Part shown: positions 7,333-56,109 of the stretch, piece after piece | Layout of the letters: every line of letters begins with the position of its first letter | How positions within the stretch are numbered: the stretch's first letter is position 1 | From: an uncultured Gammaproteobacteria bacterium | GTDB taxonomy: Bacteria > Pseudomonadota > Gammaproteobacteria > GCA-001735895 | Reading direction: 5' to 3' | Assembly: GCA_947260025.1 (NCBI GenBank) | Contig: CAMYON010000002.1 | Span: 3,714-67,713, forward strand | Length of the DNA stretch: 64,000 bases | Made by a program: the position numbers and the translations under genes | Notes under the pieces: model-generated | The model's input: the letters and a program-made list of their open reading frames with translations, nothing else | Databases searched by the model: none | What the model was told of the DNA's origin: nothing

Positions 7333-7682
7333 AGATAGTCAACCTGGTAAGAATAATTAGCTGACCGATAGTGTGGTTAGTCGGGGTTGCCGATGCAAAA
7401 CAAATAAATTGATCACGTCAAAAGTAAAGCTAATAAGTAAATTTTATTTTTTACTTATCCTCATCAAATTAATTTATATCTAATTCATCCTCAAGGCGGG
7501 TCATCAGGCGATATTCAGAGGGTGCGGGGAGATTGATCTGGATAAGCTGACAGCGGATGCGAACCAGTCGAGTCCTATAAAATCCGGTCGAATTAACTGC
7601 AGATAATCCCCAGTCACTTGACCAACCGCAATTATGGGGACCCAAAACTGCGCTAGGCTGTCTTTTTCAGCGAAAAACGCCG
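7333..7682. promoter_or_regulatory. Divergent promoter region between soeA and ftsH-like
   Basis: 350 bp with no ORF, strongly AT-rich (taaattttattttttacttatcctcatcaaattaatttatatctaattcat). Sits between two divergently transcribed genes. Confidence 0.45.
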
Positions 7683-9608
7683 ATGCCGAACCACCTGCCG
7701 CCTAAACAGCCGAAACAGCCCTTCGACTGGCAGCAACCCCTGCCCTGGTGGCGCTACCTGTCGTGGTTCATCGTTTTGCTGATTTTTACCTGGTTCTTTT
7801 TGAACCCCACCAACGACGGCAAGCTGTCCGTGCCTTATAGCCAGTTCAAGTCCGAGGTAGCGGATGACCAGGTTACCTGGGTGGAGTTTCAGGGCGATCG
7901 AATTTCCGGGGAATACCATCAATCCCGGGCACATCCCGAGCTTGACGGGAAAAGAACCTACTCTCGATTTATCACGACCGCTCCCCCGTTGCAGGACCCG
8001 GAACTAATTACCCTGCTCGAACAGCACCAGGTCGAGATTCGCGTCGTCTCGACCGAGGCCAACTGGTTGTCGAAGGCCCTGATCGGGGTATTACCCTGGA
8101 TCCTGATCATCGGCCTGTTCTGGTATGGCACCTCGAGAATGCGCAAAGGCCTCGGCGGCATTGGCGGTGGCGACGGCATCTTCGACTTCGGAAAATCCCG
8201 CGCCAAGCGTTTTCGCCGCTCGGATTCGCAACTGACATTCGATGACGTGGCCGGCCTGGAAAACGCCAAGCGGGATATGCGTGAAATTGTCGGTTACCTG
8301 AAGGAACCGGAGCACTATCGCAAGCTCGGCGCCAAGATTCCGAAAGGAATCCTGCTGATGGGGCCGCCGGGCACCGGTAAGACCCTGATGGCCAAGGCGG
8401 TCGCCGGCGAGGCCAACGTGCCCTTCTTCAGCATCAGCGGCTCCGAGTTTATCGAAATGTTCGTCGGCGTCGGCGCTTCGAGGGTACGCGACATGTTCGC
8501 CAGCGCCCGCAAGGAAGCACCGTCGATCATCTTTATCGACGAAATCGATTCCGTGGGGCGAGCCAGGGGCACCGGCCTGGGTGGTGGACACGACGAACGC
8601 GAACAAACCCTGAACCAGATACTGGGCGAAATGGATGGCTTCGATCCACACGAAGCGGTAGTCGTGCTGGCTGCTACCAATCGCCCGGATGTGCTCGACG
8701 CCGCATTGATGCGGCCCGGGCGTTTCGATCGCAAGATAACCCTGGACCTGCCGGATAAGAAAGCCCGGCGGGCCATACTCGACATTCACAGCGCCGATGT
8801 ACCCTTGAGCGAAGATGCCGACCTGGATCGTATCGCGGCCCTGACCGTCGGCTTCTCGGGCGCGGACCTGGAAAACCTGGTGAACGAAGCCGCGTTATTA
8901 TGCGGCAGGGAAAACCGCGAAACCGTAAACATGGAATCCCTGCTCAATGCACGCGACAAGGTCGTGCTCGGCGGAAAACGCGAGTTGATTATCAGCGACG
9001 ACGAAAAAATCCTGGTTGCCTACCACGAGGCCGGGCATGCGCTGGTCGCGACTCAATTGCCGAGCGCCGATCCGCTCGACAAAGTCAGCATTATCCCGCG
9101 TGGGCGAGCGCTCGGCGTAACCGAACAGATCCCGGAGGAAGAACACTACAACCTGCGTAAAACCTACCTGCACGATCGCATCGGCGTGATGCTCGGCGGG
9201 CGGGCGGCGGAGCAAATGATGTTCGGCGAAGTGAGCTCCGGTGCCGAAGACGATCTCAAGCAGGCGACCAGGCTGGCGCGGCACATGGTAACGCACTGGG
9301 GGATGAGCGAAAAAATCGGGCCGGTAGCGTTTCGTCGCGGTGAAGAACACATATTTCTGGGGCGGGAAATGACCCAGCAACGCGATTTCAGCGAACATAC
9401 GGCGCAGGTTATCGACGATGAAATTGGTTCCCTGCTAAAGGGTATCGAGCAGGAGATCAAGACCCTGTTGCAACAGCATCGCAGCCAGCTGGAATCGCTG
9501 GCGCAGGCGCTACTGGAAAAAGAAACCCTGGCAGCAGATGAAATCCAGTCAATCCTGACATCATCAACCGGATTTACGAATGGGGAAATCGAAAATGAGG
9601 CAACTTAG
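7683..9608 (+). CDS. ftsH: ATP-dependent zinc metalloprotease FtsH (likely a paralogue, non-canonical context)
   Basis: Walker A GPPGTGKT, Walker [31 protein letters not shown], zinc site HEAGHAL. Two N-terminal transmembrane helices flank a periplasmic domain. Confidence 0.9.
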
Positions 9609-10329
9609 AAACCTGGCGCAGTTAAGTAAATTTCACCTGCAGGCGCGTGACGGCGAGATCGGCCGCCTGAAAGAAATTTTTTTCGATGACGAGCACTGGG
9701 CGGTACGGTACTTCGTCGTTCATACCGGCAACTGGCTGTTGGGCAGGGATGTCCTGATCCCGCCGTCGGCGATAACTGCCGTCGCCGAAGAGGAAGAATT
9801 ACTGCACGTGGATCTGACGCGGGAGCAAATCGAGAACTGCCCGGATGTCGATACTTCGCTGCCCATCTCGCGACATTACGAAAACGACTACTACGGCTAC
9901 TATGGGCTGCAGCCTTACTGGCTGCATAATCCATTGCCGGAAGACATCCCCGAACCGCGCCCGGCACCGCCGGAACTGCAGCCGCGCGAGCCGGATCAAC
10001 CGCATCTACGCAGTAGTGAAGCGGTTACCGGTTATCACATACATGCCCAGGATGGAGAGATCGGCCACGTCGAGGATTTCATCCTCGACGATGACGACTG
10101 GACGGTCCGTTACCTGGAGATCAACACCCACAAATGGCGGCCCGGCAAGCACGTGCTGGTTGCCCCCATCTGGATTCATTCGATCGACTGGCGCAGCAAA
10201 GAGGTAATCGTCAACCTGAACCGTCAGCCAATCGAATCTGCGCCGGTGTATGACAGGACAAGACTGATCAGCAAGGATTACGAGCTGTCGCTCTACAAAC
10301 ACTACGGCATGGCCACTAGCCCGAAGTAA
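9595..10329 (+). CDS. Tandem double PRC-barrel domain protein
   Basis: Two homologous ~75-aa units: HLQARDGEIGRLKEIFFDDEHWAVRYFVVHTGNWLLGRDVLIP and HIHAQDGEIGHVEDFILDDDDWTVRYLEINTHKWRPGKHVLVAP. The start overlaps the ftsH stop (ATG at 9595 or 9580), so the two genes are translationally coupled. Confidence 0.7.
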   Translation: MRQLRNLAQLSKFHLQARDGEIGRLKEIFFDDEHWAVRYFVVHTGNWLLGRDVLIPPSAITAVAEEEELLHVDLTREQIENCPDVDTSLPISRHYENDYYGYYGLQPYWLHNPLPEDIPEPRPAPPELQPREPDQPHLRSSEAVTGYHIHAQDGEIGHVEDFILDDDDWTVRYLEINTHKWRPGKHVLVAPIWIHSIDWRSKEVIVNLNRQPIESAPVYDRTRLISKDYELSLYKHYGMATSPK

Positions 10330-10348
10330 CGGACCAACAGGAAGACTA

Positions 10349-11011
10349 GTGGAGTTTGATCGCCAACGGCGCCAGATGATAGCCGATATCGAAGCGGGGG
10401 TGGCCTTTACCCGCAATCTGATTGGCAAGGACCGACTCGATAATCGAGTGATGACCGCGATGCGCCAGGTGCCGCGTGAAAAATTCGTGCCGCGTGACCT
10501 GCGCTACGCTGCCTTTCGGGACGGCGCCCTGCCGGTCGGCCACGGGCAAACCATTTCACAGCCCTACATTGTCGCCCTGATGACAGACATGCTGGAGCTG
10601 ACGGAAGACAGTATCGTGCTCGAAATCGGTACCGGAACCGGTTACCAGGCGGCGATTCTTGCCTGCCTGGCGAGCCAGGTTTACAGCATCGAGAGAATCG
10701 CGGCGTTGGCCGAGGCGGCGCGACAGCGGCTGGCGGATATGGGCTACGATAATATCGAAATTAGCTGTGGCAACGGCTATCAGGGCTGGCCGGAAAAGGC
10801 GCCCTTCGACGCCATCGTCGTGACCGCGGCCGCGCCGTCTATCCCGCCCGCCCTGCTCGAGCAGCTCAAACCCGGCGGTCGCATGATCATACCTATCGGC
10901 CTGCCCGCCCGGCACCAGGAATTGATGCTGGTAACCAGGGACAAGCTCGGCGAAACGCATACCAGCAGCCTGCTGGCGGTCGCATTTGTGCCCATGGTCG
11001 ACGACTACTAG
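10349..11011 (+). CDS. pcm: Protein-L-isoaspartate O-methyltransferase
   Basis: ...GQTISQPYIVALMTDMLEL...LEIGTGTGYQAAILA...FDAIVVTAAAP... matches E. coli Pcm along its length. Confidence 0.9.
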   Translation: MEFDRQRRQMIADIEAGVAFTRNLIGKDRLDNRVMTAMRQVPREKFVPRDLRYAAFRDGALPVGHGQTISQPYIVALMTDMLELTEDSIVLEIGTGTGYQAAILACLASQVYSIERIAALAEAARQRLADMGYDNIEISCGNGYQGWPEKAPFDAIVVTAAAPSIPPALLEQLKPGGRMIIPIGLPARHQELMLVTRDKLGETHTSSLLAVAFVPMVDDY

Positions 11012-11015
11012 GGTA

Positions 11016-12860
11016 TCAACCGCTCTCCCGCTCGAGGTTGCAACATCCGGCTTCCAGTTCGTTCATCGATTGCGCATCGCTGGTGGTGAGTATACTGCCG
11101 GTGACCTCGTTGGGACGAAAACTGGTACAACCTTTCAGGCCCAGGCGGTAAGCCTGCTGGTAAATATCCTTGAAAGCATCGAACTCGTAATCGACCGGCA
11201 CGTTGATAGTCTTGGAAATGGCGCTGTCGACATAGGGTTGCAGGGCCGCCTGCATTTCGAGGTGTTGCCGCGGCGTCAGTGCAGGCGCGGTCACGAAGTA
11301 TCCGGGCAGTGCTTCATCGGGGTGGGATTGTCGCCACAGTCGCCAGGCATAATCGCTGGCATCATGCAGCTGATATTCTCCATCCGCGCCGCGGACCCGG
11401 CGTTGCGACTGGAACGCGAATACCGGTTCGATACCGCTGGAAACGTTATTGGCGAACAGGCTAATCGTGCCCGCGGGTGCGATCGCGATCAGGTGGCTGT
11501 TCCGAATGCCGTGATCGAGTATGCCCTGCTGGATGTCCTGCGGCAGGCCTTGCACGTAACGCGATGCGGCAAAGGCATCGCGGTCGTAAAACGGAAAAGC
11601 GCCACTGGCCTTTGCCAGCGTCACCGATTCGCGGTAGGCGCTATCCCGCATCAAACGCATGACCTGCGCCGCCAGTTCGCGGGCGGGCTCATCGGCATAG
11701 TGCAGACCCAGCATGATCAGGGTATCCGCGAGTCCGGTAATACCGAGACCAATGCGGCGCGTGCCCCGCGCCTGTTCAGCCTGCGAATCGAGCGGAAAGC
11801 GCGACAAATCGATGATGTGATTGAGCATGCGCAGCGCTATGCGAACCGTCGATTCCAGCGCGGCAAAGTCCAGCCTGGACGCACTCGTAAACGGAGACTG
11901 CACCAGGCGCGTCAGGTTAACCGAACCCAGGTTACAGGCGCCATAGGGTGGCAACGGAATTTCACCGCAGGGATTGGTGGCGCTGATGTTTTCGCGGTAA
12001 TACAGATTATTTTGCTGGTTGATGCGGTCAACGAAAAGCACCCCGGGCTCGGCCATATCGTAGGTGGCCCGCATGATACGCTGCCACAGCACGCGCGCGC
12101 CGACTTCCCTGATCACCACGCAGGGCACCACTTCACGGCTGCCGGACCAGCGACGCTGAATAATCTCACGGCCATCGGACCGCGCCAAATCACCGAAGGC
12201 GCTCGCCGGAAACACCAGCGGCCAGGGTAAATCGTCCTGTACCGCCTGCATGAAGTCATCGGTAACCAACACCGACAGGTTGAAATTGCGCAGTTCGCGC
12301 GGGTCCCGCTTGGCGTCGACGAAATCTTCGATATCCGGGTGATCGCAGCGCAGGGTAGCCATCATCGCGCCTCGACGGTAGGCGCTGGATACCAGCGTGG
12401 CGCACATGCTGTCCCAGACCCGCATAAACGATACCGGACCCGATGCCATGCTGCCCACACGCCTGGCAACACTGCCGGCCGGCCGTAGCGTGGAAAAATC
12501 GTAACCCACGCCGCCGCCCTGCTGCATGGTCAGCGTACCTTCCTTGAGGCTGTCACAGATACCCTCCATGGAATCCTCGATCCGACCCATGACGAAACAA
12601 TTGAACAGGGTGACGTCAAAATCAGTCCCGGTACCCGCCAGAATGCGTCCGCCGGGAAGAAAACTGAAATCGCTTAGAATCGAGTAAAAGCGCTCTCGCC
12701 AGCCGGCCTGATCGCTTGCTTCCTGGTTCGCGAGTGCATGTGCTACCCGCTGCCAGCTATCTTCTACCGATTGATCGACCGGATACCCCGCTTTCAGGTA
12801 GCAATAGCGGCTATTCCAGATCTGGCGGGAGATTTCGATCTCGAAGGGATCGGTTTTCAT
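11016..12860 (-). CDS. nrdJ: Adenosylcobalamin-dependent ribonucleoside-diphosphate reductase (class II RNR, monomeric NrdJ type)
   Basis: MKTDPFEIEISRQIW..., PCGEIPLPPYGACNLGSVNL active-site region, C-terminal CC redox pair. Start placed at the internal Met (12860). The 30 upstream codons in the ORF track are Arg-rich and non-homologous. Confidence 0.85.
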   Translation of the reverse strand: MKTDPFEIEISRQIWNSRYCYLKAGYPVDQSVEDSWQRVAHALANQEASDQAGWRERFYSILSDFSFLPGGRILAGTGTDFDVTLFNCFVMGRIEDSMEGICDSLKEGTLTMQQGGGVGYDFSTLRPAGSVARRVGSMASGPVSFMRVWDSMCATLVSSAYRRGAMMATLRCDHPDIEDFVDAKRDPRELRNFNLSVLVTDDFMQAVQDDLPWPLVFPASAFGDLARSDGREIIQRRWSGSREVVPCVVIREVGARVLWQRIMRATYDMAEPGVLFVDRINQQNNLYYRENISATNPCGEIPLPPYGACNLGSVNLTRLVQSPFTSASRLDFAALESTVRIALRMLNHIIDLSRFPLDSQAEQARGTRRIGLGITGLADTLIMLGLHYADEPARELAAQVMRLMRDSAYRESVTLAKASGAFPFYDRDAFAASRYVQGLPQDIQQGILDHGIRNSHLIAIAPAGTISLFANNVSSGIEPVFAFQSQRRVRGADGEYQLHDASDYAWRLWRQSHPDEALPGYFVTAPALTPRQHLEMQAALQPYVDSAISKTINVPVDYEFDAFKDIYQQAYRLGLKGCTSFRPNEVTGSILTTSDAQSMNELEAGCCNLERESG

Positions 12861-13320
12861 GCCACTTCCGCGCAGCGATGCCGGCTCAGCCTGGCGTTTG
12901 CGGCGCCACCGCGGAGCTCGTCGGGAGTGGGAATCGTCCAAAGCCCGCAACCTGATTGTTGCGGCTGGTCGAGCCTGCCCCTCCGGCGTGACGACAGCGG
13001 GTTACAGCAGCCGCGCGAACCGAAATGTCCGCGCGAGTAGTCGTAATGCCAGCCAGGTGTGCCGCTACTATTCTTCATCGATCCGATACCTCGATCGAGA
13101 ATAGCAAGACCGGGGGTACAAAACTTGATACATATCAGCTCGGCGCCTGGATCACTGCCAGCACGGAAGGCTTACAGTCCAGGTTGGCAGCCGCCTGACG
13201 ACGCCGGGTATGAGCCATTGAATTTTTTCGCGTTTAAGCGCTGAATTCGCTAACATTGCAACGCCGGCACAAGGACAACGATTCGAATTTTGCATTTTCC
13301 GCTTCCCAGGCCCCTTATAA

Positions 13321-28157: not shown

Positions 28158-28289
28158 GGCATTCCCCTGTTTTATTCCCGGAATCACTATTAGCCAGGCA
28201 GATGCCTGCAACATTGATCGGGGTCAACGTTCCCGGATATATAAGGTAGAGAATGAAAACTGATTCAGCCTCATTGGGAGAATCTGGAA

Positions 28290-29402
28290 ATGAGTGACGT
28301 TTTTAATCTTGCTGACGATCTGGGCCCGTTGAAAGTGATCCATGTTCATGAACCCGGTATCGGCCTCAAGGGTGTGCTGGTTGTGGATAACGTTGCCTAC
28401 GGGCCTTCGATTGGGGGCGTTCGCATGGCGCCCGATGTCACCACCGAGGAATGCGCTCGCCTGGCGCGCGCGATGACCTTTAAAAACGCGGCGGCTGGAC
28501 TACGACACGGCGGAGGCAAATCGGTCCTGCTCGGCGACCCGAAAATGCCGAAAGCGCAGAAGGAAACCCTGATACGAGGATTCTGTTGTGCACTGCAGGA
28601 GGTTGAGCAGTATATTTTCGGCCCCGATATGGGTACCGACGAGGAATGCATGGGTTGGGTCAAGGATGAGATCGATCGCGCGGTCGGGCTGCCGCGTGAT
28701 CTTGGCGGCATACCGCTCGACGAGATCGGTGCCACCGGATACGGACTGAGCCACGCGGTGAATGTCGCAAGCGAGTACTGCCAGCTTGATATCGATGGGG
28801 CTCGCTTCGTCGTGCAGGGATTCGGCGCGGTCGGTAAACACGCTGCCAGGTTCCTGTCCTCGGCTGGCGCAATTCTGGTCGGCGTTTCCGACAGCGCCGG
28901 CGCCATCCAGAATCCCGATGGTTTCGACATCGATACGCTAATCGCGTTAAAAGCCGACGGCAAAAGCGTTATCGAGTATCCCGGAGCCGAGAAACTGGAT
29001 GGCGACCGGATTATCGATATCGAATGCGATATCTGGATCCCGGCGGCACGCCCCGACGTTATCCACGAAGGTAACGTGGATCGGCTCAACACCAGGCTGG
29101 TGGCGCAAGGCGCAAACATCCCGATTACCTACGCTGCGGAAAAAGTACTGCATGACAGGGGAATTCTGAACCTTCCCGACTTTATCGCCAATGCCGGTGG
29201 CGTCATTTGTGCGGCCGTCGAATACCAGGGAGCCGGCGAAACGGCCGCGTTAGCGGCGATCGAGGAAAAACTGCGGCGCAACACGCGAGAGGTTCTCGAA
29301 GCCTCACAGCGCGAGCAAATCCTGCCACGCGATGCCGCACTGGCGATGGCTCGCAAACGTGTCGAACAGGCGATGCGGTATCGCCGCTGGCATATCTTTT
29401 AG
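28290..29402 (+). CDS. Glu/Leu/Phe/Val dehydrogenase family, short-chain type (leucine/valine/phenylalanine dehydrogenase-like)
   Basis: Catalytic-lysine motif GLRHGGGKSVLLGDP and NAD Rossmann motif VQGFGAVGKHAA. 370 aa, shorter than typical bacterial GluDH. Confidence 0.8.
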   Translation: MSDVFNLADDLGPLKVIHVHEPGIGLKGVLVVDNVAYGPSIGGVRMAPDVTTEECARLARAMTFKNAAAGLRHGGGKSVLLGDPKMPKAQKETLIRGFCCALQEVEQYIFGPDMGTDEECMGWVKDEIDRAVGLPRDLGGIPLDEIGATGYGLSHAVNVASEYCQLDIDGARFVVQGFGAVGKHAARFLSSAGAILVGVSDSAGAIQNPDGFDIDTLIALKADGKSVIEYPGAEKLDGDRIIDIECDIWIPAARPDVIHEGNVDRLNTRLVAQGANIPITYAAEKVLHDRGILNLPDFIANAGGVICAAVEYQGAGETAALAAIEEKLRRNTREVLEASQREQILPRDAALAMARKRVEQAMRYRRWHIF

Positions 29403-29416
29403 GCGGGACCCGGATC

Positions 29417-30352
29417 ATGTTTCGCATTCGTTTTCATGGTCGCGGCGGTCAGGGCATGAAAACGGCCAGTCGCATTCTCGGCACCGCATTTTTTAACGCA
29501 GGCTACGAGGTACAGGATGCGCCGCGCTACGGTGCCGAGCGTCGTGGCGCACCTATCTTCGCCTACGTGCGTGCCGACAAGAGCGCCATCAACGAGCGCG
29601 GCGTTATCGATCGTCCCGACCTGGTCTGCGTCGCGGACGATACCCTGGTCGGCATGCCCGCGGCCGGCGTTGTCCAGGGGATGGATGCGCACACGGTGCT
29701 GCTGATCAATAGCCACGAGACCGCCGCAACCTGGCAGCAACGGCTTAATACCGAGGCCAGGGTTCTGATTCTAACGGCGACAGAAGACGTCGAGGATCGC
29801 GCCGAATTACCCTACATCGGCAGCCGCTGCGCGGCCGCGGCCGCGGCTCTGACGAATGTCATCGAGCGGGAAACCCTGGTCGCGGCACTGACCGAGGAAC
29901 TCGGCCACCTGCCCGCTGACGTTATTACACAAAACCGGGATATTGCGCTCAGGGCGTTCGACGACATGAAGCAGCATGCCGGACTGGTGACGCCGGGCAG
30001 CATGCCATCGGCGAGCGATTACGACAGGCCCGAGTGGATCGAGATGCCGTTCGATAACGCCGCGATTTCCAATCTCGCGATTCACGCCGGGGCCACCAGC
30101 GTCCTGGTACGTACCGGGCTGTGGCGCACCATGCGTCCCGTCATCAATTACCCGAAATGCAGCGGCTGTGCGTGGATCTGCAGCACTTACTGCCCCGATG
30201 GCGCGATCAACGTGCGCGCCGACGGGTACCCGGAGATCGACTACGATCATTGCAAGGGTTGCCTGGTCTGTGTCGCGCAATGTCCGCCACACGCAATCGA
30301 ATCGATCCCGGAACACGTCGCACGCGAACAGGAAGCGGAGGCAAGCGCATGA
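29417..30352 (+). CDS. 2-oxoacid:ferredoxin oxidoreductase, fused gamma and delta (2x[4Fe-4S] ferredoxin) subunits
   Basis: N-terminus MFRIRFHGRGGQGMKTASRILG is the PorG signature. C-terminal CSGCAWICSTYCP...CKGCLVCVAQCP are the two ferredoxin Cys clusters. Confidence 0.8.
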   Translation: MFRIRFHGRGGQGMKTASRILGTAFFNAGYEVQDAPRYGAERRGAPIFAYVRADKSAINERGVIDRPDLVCVADDTLVGMPAAGVVQGMDAHTVLLINSHETAATWQQRLNTEARVLILTATEDVEDRAELPYIGSRCAAAAAALTNVIERETLVAALTEELGHLPADVITQNRDIALRAFDDMKQHAGLVTPGSMPSASDYDRPEWIEMPFDNAAISNLAIHAGATSVLVRTGLWRTMRPVINYPKCSGCAWICSTYCPDGAINVRADGYPEIDYDHCKGCLVCVAQCPPHAIESIPEHVAREQEAEASA

Positions 30353-31590
30353 CCCGTAAACTACTGACCGGCAACAGCGCCGCCGCCTGGGGCGCGCGTC
30401 TCGCCGGCGTCGATTACATACCCGCGTTTCCGATTACGCCCCAAACCGAAATCATCGAGGACCTGGCCGCCTGGATAGACCGCGGTGAAATGGACGCGCG
30501 GCTGGTGACGCTGGAATCCGAACACTCGATGATTACCGCGGCCGGCAGCGCGGCCTCGTCCGGGGTACGCGCCTTTACCGCAACCTCGAGCCAGGGGCTG
30601 CTTTACGGCATGGAAATGGTTTATACCGTGGCCGGCTGGCGCACGCCCTTTGTCATGGTCAACGTCTCCCGCGGCCTCGCTTCCCCGATCACGCTGGAAT
30701 CGGATCACAACGACATCATGGCCGCGCGCGACAGCGGGTTTCTGCAGATTCACTGCGCCACCTGCCAGGAAATCGCCGACGGCGTCCTGATCGCCTATCG
30801 CCTGGCCGAACACCCGGAGGTACGCGTGCCCGCGATCGTCAACCTCGACGGCTTTTACCTGTCCTTTACCCGCGAACCGGTCGATCTGGCGGAGGCTTCC
30901 GAGGCAAGCGCGTTCGTGGGTGAGTACGATCCCGAAAACCTGCAGTTCAAGGGCAACTCGCCGCTGAGCCAGGCGATGGCCGTGCTGGGCGGCGGCCCTT
31001 ATTCGTATTTTCGCTACGAGGCGCACCTGGCGGTACAAAGAGCACTGTCGGTCTACGACGAAATCATCGACGAGTTCGAGGACAGGTTCGGCCGGCGTTA
31101 CGACATGATCGACAGTTACCGGATGCAGGACGCGGAGTATGTATTCGTCATGCTTGGATCGTTCTCCACCAAGGCGAGAGACGCGGTCGACAGCCTGCGC
31201 GCCGCGGGCTGGAAAGCGGGCCTGTTGCGACCGCGCGTGTTTCGCCCGTTCCCGCAGCAGCAAATCAGGCAGCTGCTGCGAGGTCGGCGCGCGGTTGCGG
31301 TCATCGATCAGAATATTTCGATGGGCATGGGGGGCGTATTGCACAGCGAGTTTGCGACCGCGCTATACGGCACGACGGATGCGCCATTGCTGGCGAGCTA
31401 TATCGGCGGCCTCGGCGGTCGCGACATCAGCCAGCAGGAATTTTTTGCGATGGCCGACGAGTTGCGCCAGGCCGACGAACGCGGCGAGGCGCCAGCCGCG
31501 CGCCTGCTTTACACCGAACATGAACTGACCGAAATGCGCAAGCTTCAGGCGATCGCGCAGGCGGAGCAAGCCGAAATTCAACAGCACTGA
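30349..31590 (+). CDS. 2-oxoacid:ferredoxin oxidoreductase alpha subunit
   Basis: MTRKLLTGNSAAAWGARLAGVDYIPAFPITPQTEI... is the PorA N-terminus. The ATG overlaps the upstream stop. Confidence 0.8.
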   Translation: MTRKLLTGNSAAAWGARLAGVDYIPAFPITPQTEIIEDLAAWIDRGEMDARLVTLESEHSMITAAGSAASSGVRAFTATSSQGLLYGMEMVYTVAGWRTPFVMVNVSRGLASPITLESDHNDIMAARDSGFLQIHCATCQEIADGVLIAYRLAEHPEVRVPAIVNLDGFYLSFTREPVDLAEASEASAFVGEYDPENLQFKGNSPLSQAMAVLGGGPYSYFRYEAHLAVQRALSVYDEIIDEFEDRFGRRYDMIDSYRMQDAEYVFVMLGSFSTKARDAVDSLRAAGWKAGLLRPRVFRPFPQQQIRQLLRGRRAVAVIDQNISMGMGGVLHSEFATALYGTTDAPLLASYIGGLGGRDISQQEFFAMADELRQADERGEAPAARLLYTEHELTEMRKLQAIAQAEQAEIQQH

Positions 31591-31600
31591 GACCGTCGTC

Positions 31601-32530
31601 ATGAGCAAGCAATCACCGCTGCATTTTCACCGCATGAAGGACATGCCTTCGACCCATCTGCTCGGCACCGGCACGCCGACCTGTGCGGGCTGTGGCGGTC
31701 TCGAAACCCTGCATACGATATACGATATCCTGGGTGAAAAAACCGTCTTCGTTAACGCCGCCGGCTGCATGACGCTGTTATCGGTATATCCCTTTACGCC
31801 GTTTCGCGGAGGTTGGCTCTACACCTCGATGGCTTCCGCTCCGGCAGGAGCCCAGGGCGTACGCGACGCTCTCGATATCCTGCTGCAAAAGAAAAAATTA
31901 TCGCCCGACGAAAACGTCGAGGTCGTGGTGATCACCGGGGATGGCGCCGCTTACGGCATGGGTATGTCCGCGACTTCGGGCGCAATGGATCGCAACCTTG
32001 ACTTCATTTACCTGTGTTACGACAACGAGGGTTACGGCAACACCGGCCAGCAGTATTCACCGGCAACGCCGCATGCGGCCAGGACATCGACCAGCCGCGG
32101 GTCCCATGGCTATCCGGGCTACAAGAAGGATCTGTTTGCCATCTGGGCGGCACATAATCCCGCCTACGTGGCCACGGTTATCGCCGCCGAACCGCTGGAC
32201 CTCGCGAAAAAGATCGAAAAAATTAAGGGCATGAGCGGGCCGCGCATGCTGATTTCGCTCGCGCCCTGCCCGACTGGTTGGGACTACGATCCACAGCTCA
32301 GCGTGGAAATCGGGCGCCTGGCGGTGCAGACCGGCGTCTGGCCTCTAAAGGAATACAGCGACGGCGAGGTGCGGCACACGAAAGTGCCTAAACGGCGCAA
32401 ACCGGTCGAAGAGTACCTGCAACTGCAGGGACGTTTTCGCCACCTGTTCGAACCGCAGCGCGACGCGGCGGGCATCGCCGAAATCCAGTCCCGGATCGAT
32501 GCCTACTGGGAGCGCGCTAAGGTCGGATGA
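31601..32530 (+). CDS. 2-oxoacid:ferredoxin oxidoreductase beta subunit (TPP-binding)
   Basis: ...CAGCGG... Cys motif and GDGAAYGMG TPP-binding motif. Confidence 0.8.
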   Translation: MSKQSPLHFHRMKDMPSTHLLGTGTPTCAGCGGLETLHTIYDILGEKTVFVNAAGCMTLLSVYPFTPFRGGWLYTSMASAPAGAQGVRDALDILLQKKKLSPDENVEVVVITGDGAAYGMGMSATSGAMDRNLDFIYLCYDNEGYGNTGQQYSPATPHAARTSTSRGSHGYPGYKKDLFAIWAAHNPAYVATVIAAEPLDLAKKIEKIKGMSGPRMLISLAPCPTGWDYDPQLSVEIGRLAVQTGVWPLKEYSDGEVRHTKVPKRRKPVEEYLQLQGRFRHLFEPQRDAAGIAEIQSRIDAYWERAKVG

Positions 32531-35040: not shown

Positions 35041-35676
35041 ATGCCTGAAACCAGGGGTCCCAGCGAATTCGTCGATGCGGCCTACAACCTGGAAGACGAA
35101 GCCAGCATGATCGAGTTTTACCGTAAATGGGCGGAAGACTACGATCACCAGATGCTGGAGGAACTGGGTTACACCTCGCCAACGACCATTTCACGGCTGC
35201 TGAGCGAGCATCTGGCGGACACCCGGTCCTCGATATTCGATATCGGTTGCGGTACCGGATTGACCTGCGTTTACCTGGCCGAGAAAGGCTACGAAAATCT
35301 CGATGGCATCGACCTGTCGCCCGATATGGTGCGGGTCGCCGGGCAACGCGGAATTTACCGTGAGCTGCTGGTCGGCGACATTAACCAGCCGCTGGAGCGC
35401 GACGACGAAATCTACGACGGTGTCATATCTTCGGGTACATTCACCCACGGGCATGTCGGCCCGCAGCCGCTGGACGAGATATTTCGCATACTCAGGCCCG
35501 GCGGTATTCTTGCCTGCACCGTGCATGACGACCTGTGGGAATCGATGGGTTTCAGGGCCAGGCTGGAATCACTTGCCGAAGGCGGTGTCGCGCGATGTCT
35601 GAGCCAGGAGAAGGACAGCTACTACCGGGACAGCCCGCCAGAGGGCTGGTTTTGTGTCTATCAGAAACGCGCCTGA
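35041..35676 (+). CDS. Class I SAM-dependent methyltransferase
   Basis: Motif I DIGCGTG. 211 aa. Confidence 0.7.
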   Translation: MPETRGPSEFVDAAYNLEDEASMIEFYRKWAEDYDHQMLEELGYTSPTTISRLLSEHLADTRSSIFDIGCGTGLTCVYLAEKGYENLDGIDLSPDMVRVAGQRGIYRELLVGDINQPLERDDEIYDGVISSGTFTHGHVGPQPLDEIFRILRPGGILACTVHDDLWESMGFRARLESLAEGGVARCLSQEKDSYYRDSPPEGWFCVYQKRA

Positions 35677-36695
35677 TCAGGCTCGGTTACGCTGATGAAA
35701 TGATCCAGCAGGCTGGTCAGGTAGCTGCCCGCGGGCAGCCGCAGCTCCAGTTGCAGCGATTTTCCCGCCGCGTCCAGTTCGTATTGCAGGTCCTCGACCA
35801 CGACCCTGAGCGGCCGCATCTGTAGCTTGACGTCCTGATTGTCGAGACAGCTGGTGATTTCGCCATGCTCGCTGTGCACCTGCTGCTCTATCTGCAAAGC
35901 CGGTCCCGAGAGTTGATTCTGACCGCTGCCGTAGAGACTGGCGGTGCTGGCAATGTCCAGGCTCGCATGACGCTGCAACAAGGTTGCGTCGAGCGCTTCG
36001 CTGAAAATCGAATGACTACCGCGCAGCATGAATACATCGCCCTCGAGCGGGTCTGACCAGTGCCCCTGCGAGATGCGCCGCGATAACACCTGGTTAAACA
36101 GGTGGCTGCGCAGCGCAGACAGCAGCATGCCGCGGCGCGTGCGCTTGAGACGGGACCCGGCAAGCTGCGCTAGCGCCTGCTCGACGTTGTCCTGGCGACG
36201 ACCAAAACGCTGCGACCCGAAGTAATTCGCCATGCCCCGGCTCGCGATGGCCTCCAGCTGTTCACGAGTGGTCACGGGCAGGTCATCGACCGCCCGGATA
36301 CAGACGCGAAAGAAATTAGACTTGTGGCTGCCGCGCCGCAGCTTGCTGCGGTTACGCAACGCCCGCAGCACGCGGTAACCGTCGCCGGAGGAGACTTTCG
36401 GTTCTGTTTTTTGTCCGGGCAGATGCAGGCTCAGCCACTGCGTCGTCAGCGCATTTTTATCCTTCATGCCGCTAAAGCCGATGTGGCGCGGATGAATCGA
36501 GTAATCCCCGGAAATTTTTGCGATTAGTTCCGGTGTACTGAGGCCCGACTTTTCCACCTGCAGGAACAGGTGCTCCCCCTCTCCTGAAGGTTCGAACCCG
36601 AGCTCCTCGAGCACAATAAAATCCTGCGGCCGCGATTTGATTACGCCGCTGATGAGAGTATCCCCGTAAGGAAAAACCAGCGCCGACTGTTTCAA
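35661..36695 (-). CDS. truD: tRNA pseudouridine(13) synthase
   Basis: Catalytic-Asp region ...FSGMKDKNALTTQW... 344 aa. Confidence 0.85.
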   Translation of the reverse strand: MKQSALVFPYGDTLISGVIKSRPQDFIVLEELGFEPSGEGEHLFLQVEKSGLSTPELIAKISGDYSIHPRHIGFSGMKDKNALTTQWLSLHLPGQKTEPKVSSGDGYRVLRALRNRSKLRRGSHKSNFFRVCIRAVDDLPVTTREQLEAIASRGMANYFGSQRFGRRQDNVEQALAQLAGSRLKRTRRGMLLSALRSHLFNQVLSRRISQGHWSDPLEGDVFMLRGSHSIFSEALDATLLQRHASLDIASTASLYGSGQNQLSGPALQIEQQVHSEHGEITSCLDNQDVKLQMRPLRVVVEDLQYELDAAGKSLQLELRLPAGSYLTSLLDHFISVTEPDQARF

Positions 36696-37973: not shown

Positions 37974-40900
37974 CTACTGGTTTAAAAGTTTGCTGTACGC
38001 ATCATATTCCTTTTTCAGGCTGTTATCCATTTTTAAGGCCTGTTCATAGCTGCTCCTGGCCGCCTGCAGATCGCCTGCACTATAGTGCGCCATAGACAGA
38101 TTTATCCATATTCTGCCATCCTCGGGGTCGAGTTCGGCGGCCCGCGCATAGTTTTCGATTGCCCGCGCGTAATCTTTCTGCAAAAAGTACAGGTTACCGC
38201 GATTGCTCTTGACCGCACTGTCCTGGGGCGCCAGTTCATCCAGTGCATCGAAGGCCAGCTCCGCCTTTTCATACAGCCCATAACGTGCATAAAGAATACC
38301 TATTTGCAGCCGTGCGGCGATATTACTCGGATTATTGTCCACCATGGCCCGATAAGGCAGAATCAGGCGATCGATACTCTTCTGCAGCAGCAGGCCCTGC
38401 GCCTGTCGGACAAGACTCTCGGTGCGTCGCACCTCCGGCAATTCAATCGAATAGCTCGCCTTGCGCAGCGTTACCGGCTGGTAGGCTTGCCACGCCTGGT
38501 CCAGGCTGATTATCCCGAGTTCGCCAGTCTCGAGTGCGGCCTGATACTTGCGCGCGCCCTCGGCCCAGGCCTCGTTGAAATTCGTATTAACCATGGTAGC
38601 TTCCAGCGGTATCCACACCTTGCCATCGTTTATCACCAGCAGACTGTTGTCCTGGCTGATTAGATCAGCCTCCTGCTCGGCGAGGCCGGTATCGAACATC
38701 AGGAAAAGATGCCCCGGAACTTCAATGAAGGCGGTATTGATACCCAGGTTCTCGAGCCCGGCACTGATTAATACCGACAAATCATCGCAATCCCCGCTTT
38801 TGAGCCGCAGGGTTTCGCGTGGAAACTGCACGTAGTCGACCTGGTCATCGCGTAACTCGTTAAACGGGGTATTGGGATCAACAATGTAATTAATGCCGGA
38901 GGCGGTGAGACTGCTGAAGTACGCCATCGCCGCAACCAGCTTTTCGTTCAGCGGCCCAGGATCTGGTTGAAAGGCATTGACCACCTGGCGCACGTAATCC
39001 CTGAGCGTGTCATCTTTCGGCGTCACGAACGAACCGATCATTTCCGCGTCACCCCAAACGATCGCATTCTTACCGTAAACCGTCATCGGCTGGGTCAAGG
39101 TAATGTCATCCTTTTGCCCATCACGCTGATAGGTCAACCTGACTTCGACCTGAACCCCCGTGTCTTCGTCGACCTCGAGAATTCGGTTGTTGAAAGTGGC
39201 GTTTATCGGGATTTCCCGGGTTTCCTTACCCTCGATTACGGCAATATCGACCGCCGTTGGAAAGTCCATAAACTCCTTGATCTGGAAGGATAGTTTCAGG
39301 TTACCGTAGTCGGTGGCGCTGACGTTACGCAAGTTGACGCTGCCGATTGGCCGGTCCTGGTACTTTTTGTAAGCGGCCGAAAAAACCGTGTCCAGATTCA
39401 GGTCGGAAAGCAACAACTGGGGAGCGTTGTTCTTGAATTCGAGCGATTTCTTGCGTTCCGCGAAAGCAACGTTCAGGATCGCGCGATTCTGCTCCGAAGG
39501 ATCGAGTTCTACCGCTTGCTCGAACTCCGCAACCGCGGCGTCGAACATACGCCGCTTGGCATAAAGGTTTCCGAGCGCAACATGCGGTTCCGCCCATTGC
39601 GGCCGAATCGCGGCCGCCCGCTCCAGGTGATCGCTAGACGCATCGAACAGGTTTGCATCCTGATAGACGCGCCCGATTCGATACTGCAAATCGGCAGAAG
39701 TGGAATCGACACTGATCGCCGTCTTGAGAAACTCGATCGCGGAGCCAACCTTGCCCTGTTGATTGGCAATATCTGCCTGTAGCACCAGTACGTCGATATC
39801 CTCGGGGGCGATCCTGGAGGCCGCCTCGGCATGAATCGAGGCAGAACGGTAGTTGCGGGTGGCAAACAGGCTACGAGCGTAGCGCTTGCGTTCATTCAGC
39901 GATTGCGGCTGCAGTGTAACGGCCGTCTCGAGATAGACGTTGGCGTCTCGGTAGCTTTCGCGCTCGAGTTCAATCTTGCCCGCGAGCGCATACAGCTCGA
40001 ATGCATCGGGATTTTGTTGAATGCCCTGGGCCAGCGATTTTACAGCTTCGGCGGGCTGTTTCATTTCAACGAAGGAGCGCGCCAGGGACAGCCATGCGTC
40101 GATCACTTCGGGACTATCCTTGACAACTCGCGTCAGACGCAAGACCGCCTCTTTGTGCCTGCCCTGCTTGGCGGCAATTTTACCGAGCAGGTAGTAGCCT
40201 TCGCTCCGGGTTTCCTTGCCACCGGACAACTCGACCGCTACCGACCTGGCCTCCTCGTCGCGGTTAAGATGCAGCAGCGAGCGTGCCTTTCCGACCGCGG
40301 CGGCGCCCAAATCCGGCCGCATTCCGGAGACCGCCGCATAGTGCCCCAACGCCTCCTCGTAATTACCCATGTTGTATAGATCCTGTGCAATCCTGAGCCT
40401 GATCCTGAAATCATCGGGATGGCGCTCGACTATCGCCTGGTAAGTAAGCAGACCGTCGTCGACGATACCTGCTTCGATATAGGCCCTACCCAGCAGGTAT
40501 CGCAGTTCGACATTTTCCGGGTACGCGACGAGACCATCCTCGGCGCAGGTAACCGCTCCGAGAGCATCCGCCAGGTTTAAACTCGACCGGGCACAGATCA
40601 AAAACGGCTCCACTTCGGACGGCTCCTGTTCCAGCACTTCATCGATTAGCGCTCGAGCCTCGAGAAATTGCCCCAGCTCATAATGCGCCCGCACCTGATA
40701 AAGAATCGCCTTGTCATGATATATCTCCGAATCCGCAAGTCGCCTGAACTCGCCGAGCGCTCGCGTATAATTTTTTAACTGGTAGAGACTCATGCCCAGT
40801 AAATCGCGCACATCGGCGTTGTCCGGTTCGAGTCGAAGCATCTTGTCAGCCAGGTTGACCACGTCGGCGAATTCATTGCTTTCGTAAAGTCCGGTAATCG

Positions 40901-42953
40901 TCTGAAAATGGTTCTGCTTCGGCAGCGATGGTGCAGCACGCAGTCCGTGAGCGCTCACCGATACGACTCTGAACCACCTGTACTCGCCGGCGTCATCGAC
41001 CGACAGCGTCTGCCCCAGCGACGAGCTCGTGGAAATGGTCTCGAACGGGCCATCCCTGTTCCTGGCAGCCTCGACTTCATACTTTTCGATAAGCGGAGAT
41101 TTACTGCTGCTCCATGCCAGGTTGATCTGATCTCTGTTGGCAGAGATATTCAGGCCAAACGCTGAATCCGGATACTCCAGCAGGTCGAAACGAAAATACT
41201 TCTGACGTTCGCTGTCGTTGACATAAATACTGTTCTTTGCGCCGGAAGATACCGAAATCGATGTCGCTTTTTCGAGATACGCCAGGGTTCCATTCTTACC
41301 CGCGGAGCCGAAGGCGCGGTAAGGTTCGAAATTGCTGAACACCTGAACCCAGTAATCGTTGAAATCCGAGGCTGCCAATACATAGAGCCGGTCCTGCAGA
41401 TCAATATCCAGTCCGTAGAAACGGGTGAACTCATGCAGTGATTTTCCCTTGATACCGATGGCAGCGATTTTTTTGCGATCCTTGTTGATCACCTGAATCA
41501 CTCCGCCCGCGCCCCGGTCTGCAATGTAAAGATTCTCTTCGCTATCCAGGGCGATGGGCCCTACTTCGACGAATAGTTGTTCGCCGTCTCGTTGTTGATT
41601 GATCTCTTCCAGAAACTGCCCATCACTCGAAAAAACCTGGATCCTGTTATTACCCTTGTCGGTAACATAATATTTGCCATGACTTACGAAAACATCGCTG
41701 GGATTCTGAAATCCGGCGGCAGAAGTTCCATAGCGGCCTATCGTAAAAAGCTTGCTACCGTCGAGGGAAAAAGCATGTAACCTGTTTTTGTCGAGTATTG
41801 CCACCGATTGCGCGCCAACGTGAATCGCCTGCGGCTTTTTCGCCTCCTCGGCGAACCTGCCGGTCTCTTTGCCGTCGGCTCCGAGTATGACAATTCCCTG
41901 GTTGTCAGGTCTTATGCAAAGGACCCGGCCTTCGGTAAAAACGGTCATCGCCACGCAGGGTGCATCGTAAGCAGCACCGAATTCAAGCAAATCGATCGCC
42001 ACGGGAGTGGCAAAACCGGTCTGGTCCAGCTGTAAAACCTCTACCTTCTTGTTCCTGGTATCCAGAATCGCTAGCTGGCCGTTGGTATTGACAGACAATT
42101 GGCTAATATCGAGAAAACGCGTGCGCGATTGCCCCAACCCGCCAAACTCTCCAAACACCTGTCGCGTTCGCCAGTCGAAAAACACGACCCGTTTGCTGAC
42201 AGCATCGCCAAGGTAAAGATTTCCGTCCAGATCGGTGGTCAGTGCGCTGAACTCCGGCGTTTCGCCAAAGAACTCCGTTAATTCTTGCGCCGTAACACGC
42301 TCGATCAGATTCCCCTGCCGGTTAAAAACGGATATACGGGTCGGGCCCTCGAGCACATAAATATTCTCGTCGGCATCGATACTGATATGGGTGGGCTTGA
42401 GGAGATCCGTTTTTCTGTTGCCATTCCTGCCAATACTGCGCAAAAAAAGCCCCTGGTAATTAAATACGCTGATCTGCTTGTTATTGACGTCGCCCAGGTA
42501 AATCTTTCTGTTGGACGAGACCGCAACCGCTTTCGGATCATTGAGTTCGCCCGGAGAGCTTCCGGATTGCGAAAACCGTGTCACCAGCTCTAACGCCGGA
42601 TCCAGTATCACAACCTCTCCGGAGCCTTCGTTTACGACGACCAGGTTACCGTTGGGTAGTATATCGACACCGCCGAGACTGGAGTCATCGAAAATGGAGG
42701 GTAACAGACTGATTGCTTCGATACTGCCGTCGACGATTCTTAACAGCGTACCCTGTTCTTCGCTGGTGACATAAACCACGCCATCGTCGCTTATTTTTAT
42801 ACCGCTGGCGTCCTCCATGATCCGGGCATAGTCACCAGCCTCGATAAATTGAAGAATTTCGATCGCCCGCGCCTGGGCCGACAAGCCTGTTAGAACAAGG
42901 ACGATTAATATCCGGAGACAATACTTTTGCGCTTTCATGACCTCGTTCCGCAA
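37974..42953 (-). CDS. Giant secreted multidomain protein: signal peptide, NHL-repeat beta-propellers, FN3 domain, ~10 TPR repeats, transglutaminase-like cysteine protease core, C-terminal TPRs
   Basis: 1,659 aa. N-terminal signal peptide. Repeated NHL-like blades (YVTDKGNNRIQVFSSDGQF, LYIADRGAGGVIQVINKD, LAILDTRNKKVEVL). Transglutaminase-like catalytic region SGDCDDLSVLISAGLENLGINTAFIEVPGHLFLMFD, with Cys, His and Asp spaced as in TGase/BTLCP cores. Long TPR arrays before and after. By eye, the gene has lower GC (~50-53%) than its flanks. Confidence 0.7.
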   Translation of the reverse strand: MRNEVMKAQKYCLRILIVLVLTGLSAQARAIEILQFIEAGDYARIMEDASGIKISDDGVVYVTSEEQGTLLRIVDGSIEAISLLPSIFDDSSLGGVDILPNGNLVVVNEGSGEVVILDPALELVTRFSQSGSSPGELNDPKAVAVSSNRKIYLGDVNNKQISVFNYQGLFLRSIGRNGNRKTDLLKPTHISIDADENIYVLEGPTRISVFNRQGNLIERVTAQELTEFFGETPEFSALTTDLDGNLYLGDAVSKRVVFFDWRTRQVFGEFGGLGQSRTRFLDISQLSVNTNGQLAILDTRNKKVEVLQLDQTGFATPVAIDLLEFGAAYDAPCVAMTVFTEGRVLCIRPDNQGIVILGADGKETGRFAEEAKKPQAIHVGAQSVAILDKNRLHAFSLDGSKLFTIGRYGTSAAGFQNPSDVFVSHGKYYVTDKGNNRIQVFSSDGQFLEEINQQRDGEQLFVEVGPIALDSEENLYIADRGAGGVIQVINKDRKKIAAIGIKGKSLHEFTRFYGLDIDLQDRLYVLAASDFNDYWVQVFSNFEPYRAFGSAGKNGTLAYLEKATSISVSSGAKNSIYVNDSERQKYFRFDLLEYPDSAFGLNISANRDQINLAWSSSKSPLIEKYEVEAARNRDGPFETISTSSSLGQTLSVDDAGEYRWFRVVSVSAHGLRAAPSLPKQNHFQTITGLYESNEFADVVNLADKMLRLEPDNADVRDLLGMSLYQLKNYTRALGEFRRLADSEIYHDKAILYQVRAHYELGQFLEARALIDEVLEQEPSEVEPFLICARSSLNLADALGAVTCAEDGLVAYPENVELRYLLGRAYIEAGIVDDGLLTYQAIVERHPDDFRIRLRIAQDLYNMGNYEEALGHYAAVSGMRPDLGAAAVGKARSLLHLNRDEEARSVAVELSGGKETRSEGYYLLGKIAAKQGRHKEAVLRLTRVVKDSPEVIDAWLSLARSFVEMKQPAEAVKSLAQGIQQNPDAFELYALAGKIELERESYRDANVYLETAVTLQPQSLNERKRYARSLFATRNYRSASIHAEAASRIAPEDIDVLVLQADIANQQGKVGSAIEFLKTAISVDSTSADLQYRIGRVYQDANLFDASSDHLERAAAIRPQWAEPHVALGNLYAKRRMFDAAVAEFEQAVELDPSEQNRAILNVAFAERKKSLEFKNNAPQLLLSDLNLDTVFSAAYKKYQDRPIGSVNLRNVSATDYGNLKLSFQIKEFMDFPTAVDIAVIEGKETREIPINATFNNRILEVDEDTGVQVEVRLTYQRDGQKDDITLTQPMTVYGKNAIVWGDAEMIGSFVTPKDDTLRDYVRQVVNAFQPDPGPLNEKLVAAMAYFSSLTASGINYIVDPNTPFNELRDDQVDYVQFPRETLRLKSGDCDDLSVLISAGLENLGINTAFIEVPGHLFLMFDTGLAEQEADLISQDNSLLVINDGKVWIPLEATMVNTNFNEAWAEGARKYQAALETGELGIISLDQAWQAYQPVTLRKASYSIELPEVRRTESLVRQAQGLLLQKSIDRLILPYRAMVDNNPSNIAARLQIGILYARYGLYEKAELAFDALDELAPQDSAVKSNRGNLYFLQKDYARAIENYARAAELDPEDGRIWINLSMAHYSAGDLQAARSSYEQALKMDNSLKKEYDAYSKLLNQ

Positions 42954-55863: not shown

Positions 55864-56109
55864 AGTATCTCCAGATGTCTGTTGAACAGCCTGTTTGCGG
55901 CTATCCTGGGTTAAGCCTCCACATACCCGACGCTCACGACCTGCTGTCTCTGGTAAAACGCAGGCACCCATGAACGCGTTGCGGCATGTGTGTGTCGTTA
56001 GGGAACACCGAAAATTGCGATGCCCCGATTAATTTGCCCCTGCAGTTGCCGAGGGCGCGCGCTTTATACCATAATCCCGTATTCTCAACAACCAGCCAGC
56101 AGTAGTTTT

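Follow-up and report, generated by a model that had tools for sequence, protein, structure and literature searches.

A 64,000-nucleotide stretch of DNA from an uncultured sediment gammaproteobacterium (contig CAMYON010000002.1, forward-strand positions 3,714 to 67,713; hereafter the window) carries at positions 7683-11011 the genes for an FtsH-family protease, a tandem PRC-barrel protein and the protein-L-isoaspartate O-methyltransferase Pcm, all three exactly where a sequence-only reading of this DNA had placed them. The genes are tightly packed in one orientation, are flanked by soeABC-like genes and a convergent gene for a class II ribonucleotide reductase (nrdJ), and, judged from the sequence, constitute an operon-like unit that is conserved by relatives. 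The protease is probably an accessory paralogue, i.e., a second copy of FtsH. A newly identified feature is a CRP/FNR-like box of perfect conservation upstream of ftsH, at class II spacing to a putative -10 element. That the locus is a conditionally expressed, activator-dependent protein-maintenance operon built around an accessory FtsH, usually together with Pcm, is considered an evenly balanced proposition.

The box was found by aligning the regions upstream of ftsH and had gone unseen in the sequence-only reading. It has the form TTGAY-N4-CGCAA (TTGACCAACCGCAA in the window) and is located 49-63 nucleotides (nt) from the start codon. In two FtsH subclades of differing flanks it was present in 11 of 11 loci with zero mismatches, and it is retained in both flank contexts, whether the PRC gene is present or absent. 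The probability of finding it by chance in a 300-nt upstream region is ∼6e-4. Since the box occurs once in the window, the evidence for it lies in its conservation and not in its occurrence. In most box-bearing relatives a hexamer of the TAnnnT type (TAGGAT, TAGATT, TACGAT, TAAGAT, TATGAT) follows 21-22 nt past the box; in L171 and L172 this -10-like element is weaker, and the corresponding hexamer of the window, TAGGCT, was not called by a scan for consensus sigma-70 promoters. A spacing of 22 nt between box and -10 element corresponds to class II (-41.5) geometry in FNR and CRP promoters. The half-sites of the box match the published motifs of HcpR/FNR (TTGAC) and NnrR (CGCAA), where the full motifs are TTGAC..GTCAA for HcpR and TTGCG..CGCAA for NnrR (PMC1274295). 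With class II FNR, Dnr, NnrR and HcpR promoters the putative ftsH promoter region shares a 14-bp TTG..N..CAA dyad 22 nt before a -10-like element and the lack of a -35 element; it differs from them in that the two half-sites form a hybrid (TTGAC + CGCAA), and it is regarded as a candidate site.

A canonical FNR/Dnr-type box, TTGATCGGGGTCAA, was observed elsewhere in the window at 28214-28227 (+), with 0.13 occurrences expected by chance. It is located 62 nt upstream of a gene for a Glu/Leu/Phe/Val dehydrogenase (28290-29402), after which come 2-oxoacid:ferredoxin oxidoreductase genes (29207-32530). By its sequence this cluster looks like a member of an oxygen-responsive regulon, and the organism therefore probably uses FNR-type regulators. 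Three further candidates were rejected. A one-mismatch box upstream of nrdJ (12959-12972) is not kept in L163/L164, and one-mismatch matches numbered 13 against 10.5 expected; a sigma-32 reading of the CTTGAcc element failed as its would-be -10 is not conserved; and FNR-like boxes upstream of stand-alone PRC genes did not exceed the control.

The FtsH of the window matches the family model TIGR01241 with 782 bits (cutoff 600) and contains the Pfam domains FtsH_ext, AAA, AAA_lid_3 and Peptidase_M41. Aligned to E. coli FtsH, it retains the Walker A motif GPPGTGKT, the pore loop MFVGVGA, the Walker B motif IIFIDEID, the second region of homology, the HEAGH motif and the downstream acidic zinc ligands. 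The protein is therefore predicted to be catalytically complete, in agreement with the sequence-only reading, and the unusual Pro/Gln-rich N-terminus noted there proved to be genuine and kept in relatives.

The non-canonical character that had been attributed to this FtsH was borne out as well. Domain architecture and motifs are shared with the housekeeping FtsH of the rlmE-ftsH-folP-glmM cluster, but the protein has an identity of no more than 46% to E. coli K-12 FtsH, and its score against the E. coli-type equivalog NF008004 / PRK10733 is 594 bits, below the cutoff of 1008; its neighbours and its putative promoter type also differ. Neither in the window nor at 80 related FtsH loci from metagenomes were rlmE, folP or glmM found near FtsH by tblastn with E. 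coli RlmE, FolP and GlmM, and the nearest FtsH relatives, among them those of Desulfobulbaceae, lack the canonical context. Additional copies of FtsH are known from cyanobacteria, organelles and a mobile island, tLST, a transmissible locus for stress tolerance. Between syntenic loci FtsH is 78-87% identical, compared with 90-96% for SoeA and 85-97% for LivG/F/H, and thus evolves faster than its neighbour genes, unlike a typical essential FtsH. For comparison, identity to E. coli FtsH is 76% for FtsH1, the core copy in P. aeruginosa, and 43-45% for FtsH2, which was acquired horizontally (PMC6629908). It is the combination of low identity, failure of the equivalog model, lack of rlmE/folP neighbours and faster evolution that makes an accessory paralogue likely.

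The Pcm in the same cluster, co-oriented as the sequence-only reading had it, passed two equivalog models (NF001453, 241 bits, cutoff 188; TIGR00080, 217 bits, cutoff 159); its identity to E. coli Pcm is 52%. The enzyme is thus shared with the surE-pcm-nlpD-rpoS cluster, but here pcm follows ftsH, and homologues of surE, nlpD and rpoS were not found in the window. Both pcm itself and the surE-pcm-nlpD-rpoS cluster are linked to the survival of non-growing cells. In addition, truD (35661-36695, minus strand) is not followed by surE-pcm-nlpD, unlike in E. coli, which would fit a transfer of pcm into the ftsH operon.

Conservation was assessed in a close set of 17 loci, window included, whose FtsH has an identity of 77% or more and which were pooled from genome loci obtained via the PRC protein, metagenome loci obtained via FtsH, and contig look-ups. 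Downstream of ftsH, Pcm was found in 14 of these loci and the PRC gene in nine. The order ftsH-PRC-pcm is present in the window and L001, ftsH-PRC-DUF6763-pcm in L002, L004 and L163/164, ftsH-DUF6763-pcm in L172, and ftsH-pcm in L081-083, L165, L171, L173 and L174; in L005-007 ftsH-PRC is found without pcm and in another flank context. On the FtsH tree the presence of PRC is ancestral. The sequence-only reading had considered that the PRC gene might stand beside ftsH in none of the relatives, which is not what was found. Its proposal of a stress-survival module holds insofar as an operon-like unit is kept in relatives; the PRC protein is, however, not a constant partner. As far as gene order can tell, pcm is the usual partner of ftsH in the soe/liv chromosomal context and PRC, DUF6763 and nrdJ are facultative. 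At FtsH identities of 60-72% neither PRC nor pcm is adjacent.

The DUF6763 gene, encoding 115 amino acids, lies between PRC (or ftsH) and pcm (L163:12666-13013, L002, L003, L004, L172); it is missing from the window and was seen in this clade only. nrdJ adjoins the operon in five of the 17 loci, and at L086:3195-3704 it comes immediately after, and in the same orientation as, an FtsH gene of 62% identity. An apparent 850-residue FtsH-Pcm fusion in L081-083 was dismissed as an artefact of open reading frame extension, an in-frame stop parting the two genes.

The middle gene encodes a tandem PRC-barrel protein, as had been read from the sequence: Pfam (PF05239, tandem form) and puhA models match both halves, and the AlphaFold (AF2) model, with a pLDDT confidence of 80.7, has two PRC barrels separated by a disordered Pro-rich linker. 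Foldseek and HMM searches matched RC-H and CdpB proteins; the best structural match was the archaeal CdpB1/CdpB2 heterodimer (8qzo, E = 4e-9), followed by the H subunits of photosynthetic reaction centres (RC-H), to whose cytoplasmic domain each half aligns with E = 4e-5. The protein shares the PRC fold with RC-H, RimM and CdpB1/CdpB2, in all of which it is a protein-docking module; it differs from them by having neither a transmembrane anchor nor the RimM N-domain and by an identity of 10-25%. The modelled likeness to CdpB1/CdpB2 and RC-H allows, without showing, a docking of the PRC protein on FtsH. Only PRC/puhA models were matched, and no homology was detected to the FtsH modulators or adaptors HflK/C, YccA, LapB, lambda CIII and SpoVM.

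According to the sequence-only reading, the PRC gene is translationally coupled to ftsH by overlap with its stop codon. The open reading frame opens at 9580, but homologues have 244 residues beginning with MRQLR and a GGGGA Shine-Dalgarno sequence precedes the ATG at 9595; the gene is therefore assigned to 9595-10329, which gives a 14-nt overlap with ftsH. So far the overlap is confirmed. It is, however, confined to this genome and L001. It results from the loss, in the ftsH of the window, of the stop codon with which relatives of 96-97% identity end (...EIQSILT*), leaving a private extension of 15 codons (9561-9608). In the other relatives FtsH is 15 codons shorter (...EIQSILT) and a 20-35-nt spacer with GGAGG separates it from PRC. 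The overlap is recent.

Pairs of PRC and FtsH genes recur outside the close set. In Desulfobulbaceae (L023/L049) PRC precedes FtsH with a gap of at most 5 nt, in L132 one gene lies between PRC and the following FtsH, and in a Methylococcaceae metagenome-assembled genome (MAG; L028) a fragmentary FtsH is followed by PRC. Residues 1-211 are missing from this last FtsH (L028:6400-7970) and its sequence is broken up between several frames, indicating either a pseudogene or an assembly error. Such pairs occupy three to four separate branches of the PRC tree and occur in both gene orders, and by chance only ∼0.1 FtsH genes would be expected among the 136 immediate PRC neighbours examined. Little was learned from the genes around the pairs in Desulfobulbaceae and L132. 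The linkage of FtsH and PRC genes is therefore judged real and above chance, but it concerns a minority of the PRC family, ∼87% of PRC loci having no FtsH nearby.

This family is very large, bacterial and without assigned function: the PRC profile retrieved 2,929 clusters at 50% identity (E ≤ 1e-30) and members in 432 species genomes. Among the 80 best PRC-family genome loci, FtsH was present within 8 kb in 10, seven of which belong to the clade of the window itself. By the company its genes keep, the PRC protein looks like a general stress-associated protein and not like a dedicated protease subunit. PRC genes in Betaproteobacteria, Alphaproteobacteria and others are often near genes for acetate kinase, phosphoketolase, alcohol dehydrogenase, P-type ATPase and phosphoenolpyruvate synthase; the same flanks (L030, L042-044, L054, L067-074 and others) also contain trehalose-synthesis genes and FixJ/NarL-type regulators. 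By analogy, these flanks bring to mind the Burkholderia lxa locus (compare PMC3721108) and mycobacterial DosR hypoxia/dormancy loci; neither FtsH nor PRC is among the genes listed in the lxa paper (PMC3721108). In an alphaproteobacterial Arenibaculum MAG (L064:8103-10400), a Pcm-like sequence of 51% identity is found, in the same orientation, ∼1 kb downstream of the tandem PRC gene; PRC and Pcm may have become linked independently here, with a gene model that is unclear in a high-GC contig.

In the explanation proposed here, an activator of the CRP/FNR family, probably sensing low oxygen, nitric oxide or a related signal, would turn the operon on. The extra FtsH would degrade damaged or surplus membrane and cytosolic proteins, and Pcm would repair isoaspartyl damage as it accumulates in slow-growing or non-growing cells. 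The PRC protein would be expressed along with them and might dock on FtsH, acting as a modulator or adaptor that can be dispensed with; a direct interaction between the two is considered less likely than not. A bolder version, in which an FNR-type regulator controls damage triage and FtsH acts physically together with Pcm and PRC (plus DUF6763), so that isoaspartyl-damaged proteins are either repaired or degraded with PRC as the docking adaptor, is regarded as quite improbable. If true, it would be a bacterial counterpart of the eukaryotic ubiquitin-ligase adaptors with a protein-isoaspartate methyltransferase (PIMT) domain and would give a first function to a PRC family of ∼2,900 clusters.

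Several observations weigh against the proposed explanation. The FtsH tree implies at least three losses of PRC from loci that kept ftsH-pcm; together with the counts for Pcm and PRC in the close set, these losses are the reason to see ftsH as the hub and PRC as facultative. The ftsH-pcm pair in turn was seen in this lineage only. No second ftsH is present within the 64-kb window. The box is absent from one ftsH-pcm subclade, and its right half-site CGCAA deviates from the FNR consensus with its TCAA core. As to PRC, 70 of the 80 best loci (∼87%) have no FtsH within 8 kb, and the immediate neighbours are heterogeneous, with Na+/H+ exchangers at four loci and FtsH at two to three, then YflT, rubrerythrin and MerR. 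PRC homologues of 65-67% identity adjoin archease-RtcB, HPF (a hibernation factor), Usp and GST genes, and fusions of the tandem PRC are to CBS pairs, the YflT heat-stress domain, PEBP and HEAT repeats and never to protease parts (P0252, P0260, P0287, P0361, P0381). Finally, no literature linking FtsH with PRC-barrel proteins or with Pcm was found, co-mentions of isoaspartyl and FtsH being incidental; papers on CyanoTag and on the general stress response of Sphingomonas mention PRC-barrel proteins in passing only.

The mechanism put forward in the sequence-only reading would make the PRC protein a dedicated partner of the FtsH paralogue, in direct contact with it as adaptor, modulator or assembly partner, and has to be weighed against these points. 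It would account for the pairs in at least three to four branches of the PRC tree, in both orders and with overlaps or gaps of at most 35 nt, for the persistence of the pair when the flanks change between the soe/liv context and that of L005-7, and for the fact that the FtsHs of these pairs all fall into one non-canonical group; the docking role of PRC barrels in RC-H and archaeal CdpB1/B2 is in line with it. It does not fit, however, with the eight of 17 close ftsH loci that lack PRC after at least three losses, with the large majority of PRC-family loci that have no FtsH neighbour, the nearest homologues outside the clade included, or with the lack of any PRC fusion to FtsH and of literature on the pairing. 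Since PRC is kept in little more than half of the close loci, was lost repeatedly, and since most tandem-PRC genes elsewhere are on their own in unrelated contexts, what speaks for PRC as the key partner is a gene linkage that is recurrent but in the minority, and a dedicated adaptor is considered rather unlikely. It is less likely still that this is the lineage's only, housekeeping FtsH, relocated and diverged, with PRC and pcm as passengers in an operon of convenience without shared function. The core-chromosomal setting, with a soe / ftsH-pcm / liv synteny that is stable across ∼20% protein divergence, a window full of housekeeping genes, the intact catalytic motifs, the single ftsH in 64 kb and the truD gene without surE-pcm after it, which suggests that pcm too may have moved, would all agree with relocation. 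Against this, an identity of 46% corresponds to the distance of known xenologues and not of core copies, the nearest FtsHs, including those of Desulfobulbaceae, lack the canonical context, the protein evolves faster than its neighbours, and an activator-type promoter without a -35 element would be unusual for an essential gene.

An anti-phage or conflict system composed of an AAA ATPase-protease and accessory genes is effectively refuted. PADLOC matched IetA to the AAA module (1e-37) and mad2 to the methyltransferase domain, but both matches cover only the generic AAA and S-adenosylmethionine-methyltransferase cores and the full set of system genes was not recovered. Moreover, from end to end the proteins fit the equivalog or family models for FtsH and Pcm, PADLOC gave no match for PRC or DUF6763, and the locus is part of a syntenic core chromosome without mobile-element genes.

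The closest known analogue of the proposed protein-maintenance operon is the FtsH2 of tLST, also called TLPQC, which, as proposed for the FtsH here, is an additional copy with complete catalytic motifs, ∼45% identity to core FtsH and a place among protein-homeostasis genes, and which is expressed in late stationary phase (PMC6629908). The tLST copy on an E. coli plasmid was the best match in the E. coli genome collection, yet it is only 47% identical; on account of this low identity and of a separate branch in the tree, the FtsH studied here is assigned to a different clade, and the FtsH2-type affiliation raised in the sequence-only reading does not hold. The two systems also differ in location, as tLST is a mobile island, and in partners: Pcm, tandem PRC and DUF6763 here, and sHsp20, ClpK/G, YfdX, HtpX and DegP, none of them nearby here, in tLST. 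The putative control here is the CRP/FNR-type box. The ftsH operon is plausibly a protein-maintenance module of the accessory-FtsH type and no radical novelty. To our knowledge, there has been next to no work on accessory FtsHs encoded in the chromosomes of environmental Proteobacteria or on their partners. An ftsH-pcm operon that is conserved would join ATP-dependent proteolysis to isoaspartyl repair, a pairing that was not found in the literature searched; the recurrent coupling of PRC to non-canonical FtsH genes offers a concrete lead to the function of the PRC family, and the conserved CRP/FNR-like box would give a direct handle on when the operon is used.

Table 1. Features of the ftsH locus in window coordinates.
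Feature	Position	Strand	Description
CRP/FNR-family-like box TTGACCAACCGCAA (TTGAY-N4-CGCAA)	7618..7631	+	51 nt upstream of the ftsH ATG; candidate site
-10-like hexamer TAGGCT	7654..7659	+	Exactly 22 nt past the box; class II, -41.5 geometry
ftsH paralogue	7683..9608	+	641 amino acids; two transmembrane helices, AAA+ module, M41 zinc protease; private read-through extension in the last 15 codons
Tandem PRC-barrel protein	9595..10329	+	244 amino acids, cytoplasmic; barrels at residues ∼1-105 and 135-240 with a disordered Pro-rich stretch (111-134) linking them
pcm, protein-L-isoaspartate O-methyltransferase	10349..11011	+	220 amino acids; GTG start preceded by AGGAAG
nrdJ, class II (B12-dependent) ribonucleotide reductase	11016..12860	-	Convergent; variable neighbour of the operon

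The stop codon of PRC and the GTG of pcm are separated by 19 nt, and nrdJ converges on pcm with a gap of 4 nt (Table 1). The start of nrdJ is probably at 12860, the TTG start at 12950 given by the open reading frame finder being ∼30 codons too far upstream. A scan of the plus strand of the operon for internal promoters and terminators found none, and Rfam and tRNA scans gave nothing in the operon region. Upstream and divergent from ftsH are the genes of a three-subunit enzyme of the dimethyl sulfoxide (DMSO)-reductase family, whose subunit sizes fit SoeABC. The location between soeABC and pcm given in the sequence-only reading is correct in this sense; the name SoeABC itself was not confirmed by an equivalog model. 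An AT-rich block in the soeA-ftsH intergenic region (7393-7470; GATGCAAAACAAA...ATAAGTA...TTTATTT) is kept in all relatives with soeA, those without PRC included, and is probably the regulatory region of soeABC.

Outside this locus the window is made up of ordinary core chromosome, with rpsB, dxr, rseP, bamA, glnD, argG and truD. Its sole Rfam match is the t44 RNA of the rpsB leader (55910-56012, minus strand), and no tRNAs were detected. Adjoining the lpx/bamA cluster, a gene at 37974-42953 (minus strand) encodes a protein of 1,659 amino acids with an NHL/beta-propeller and many TPR repeats.

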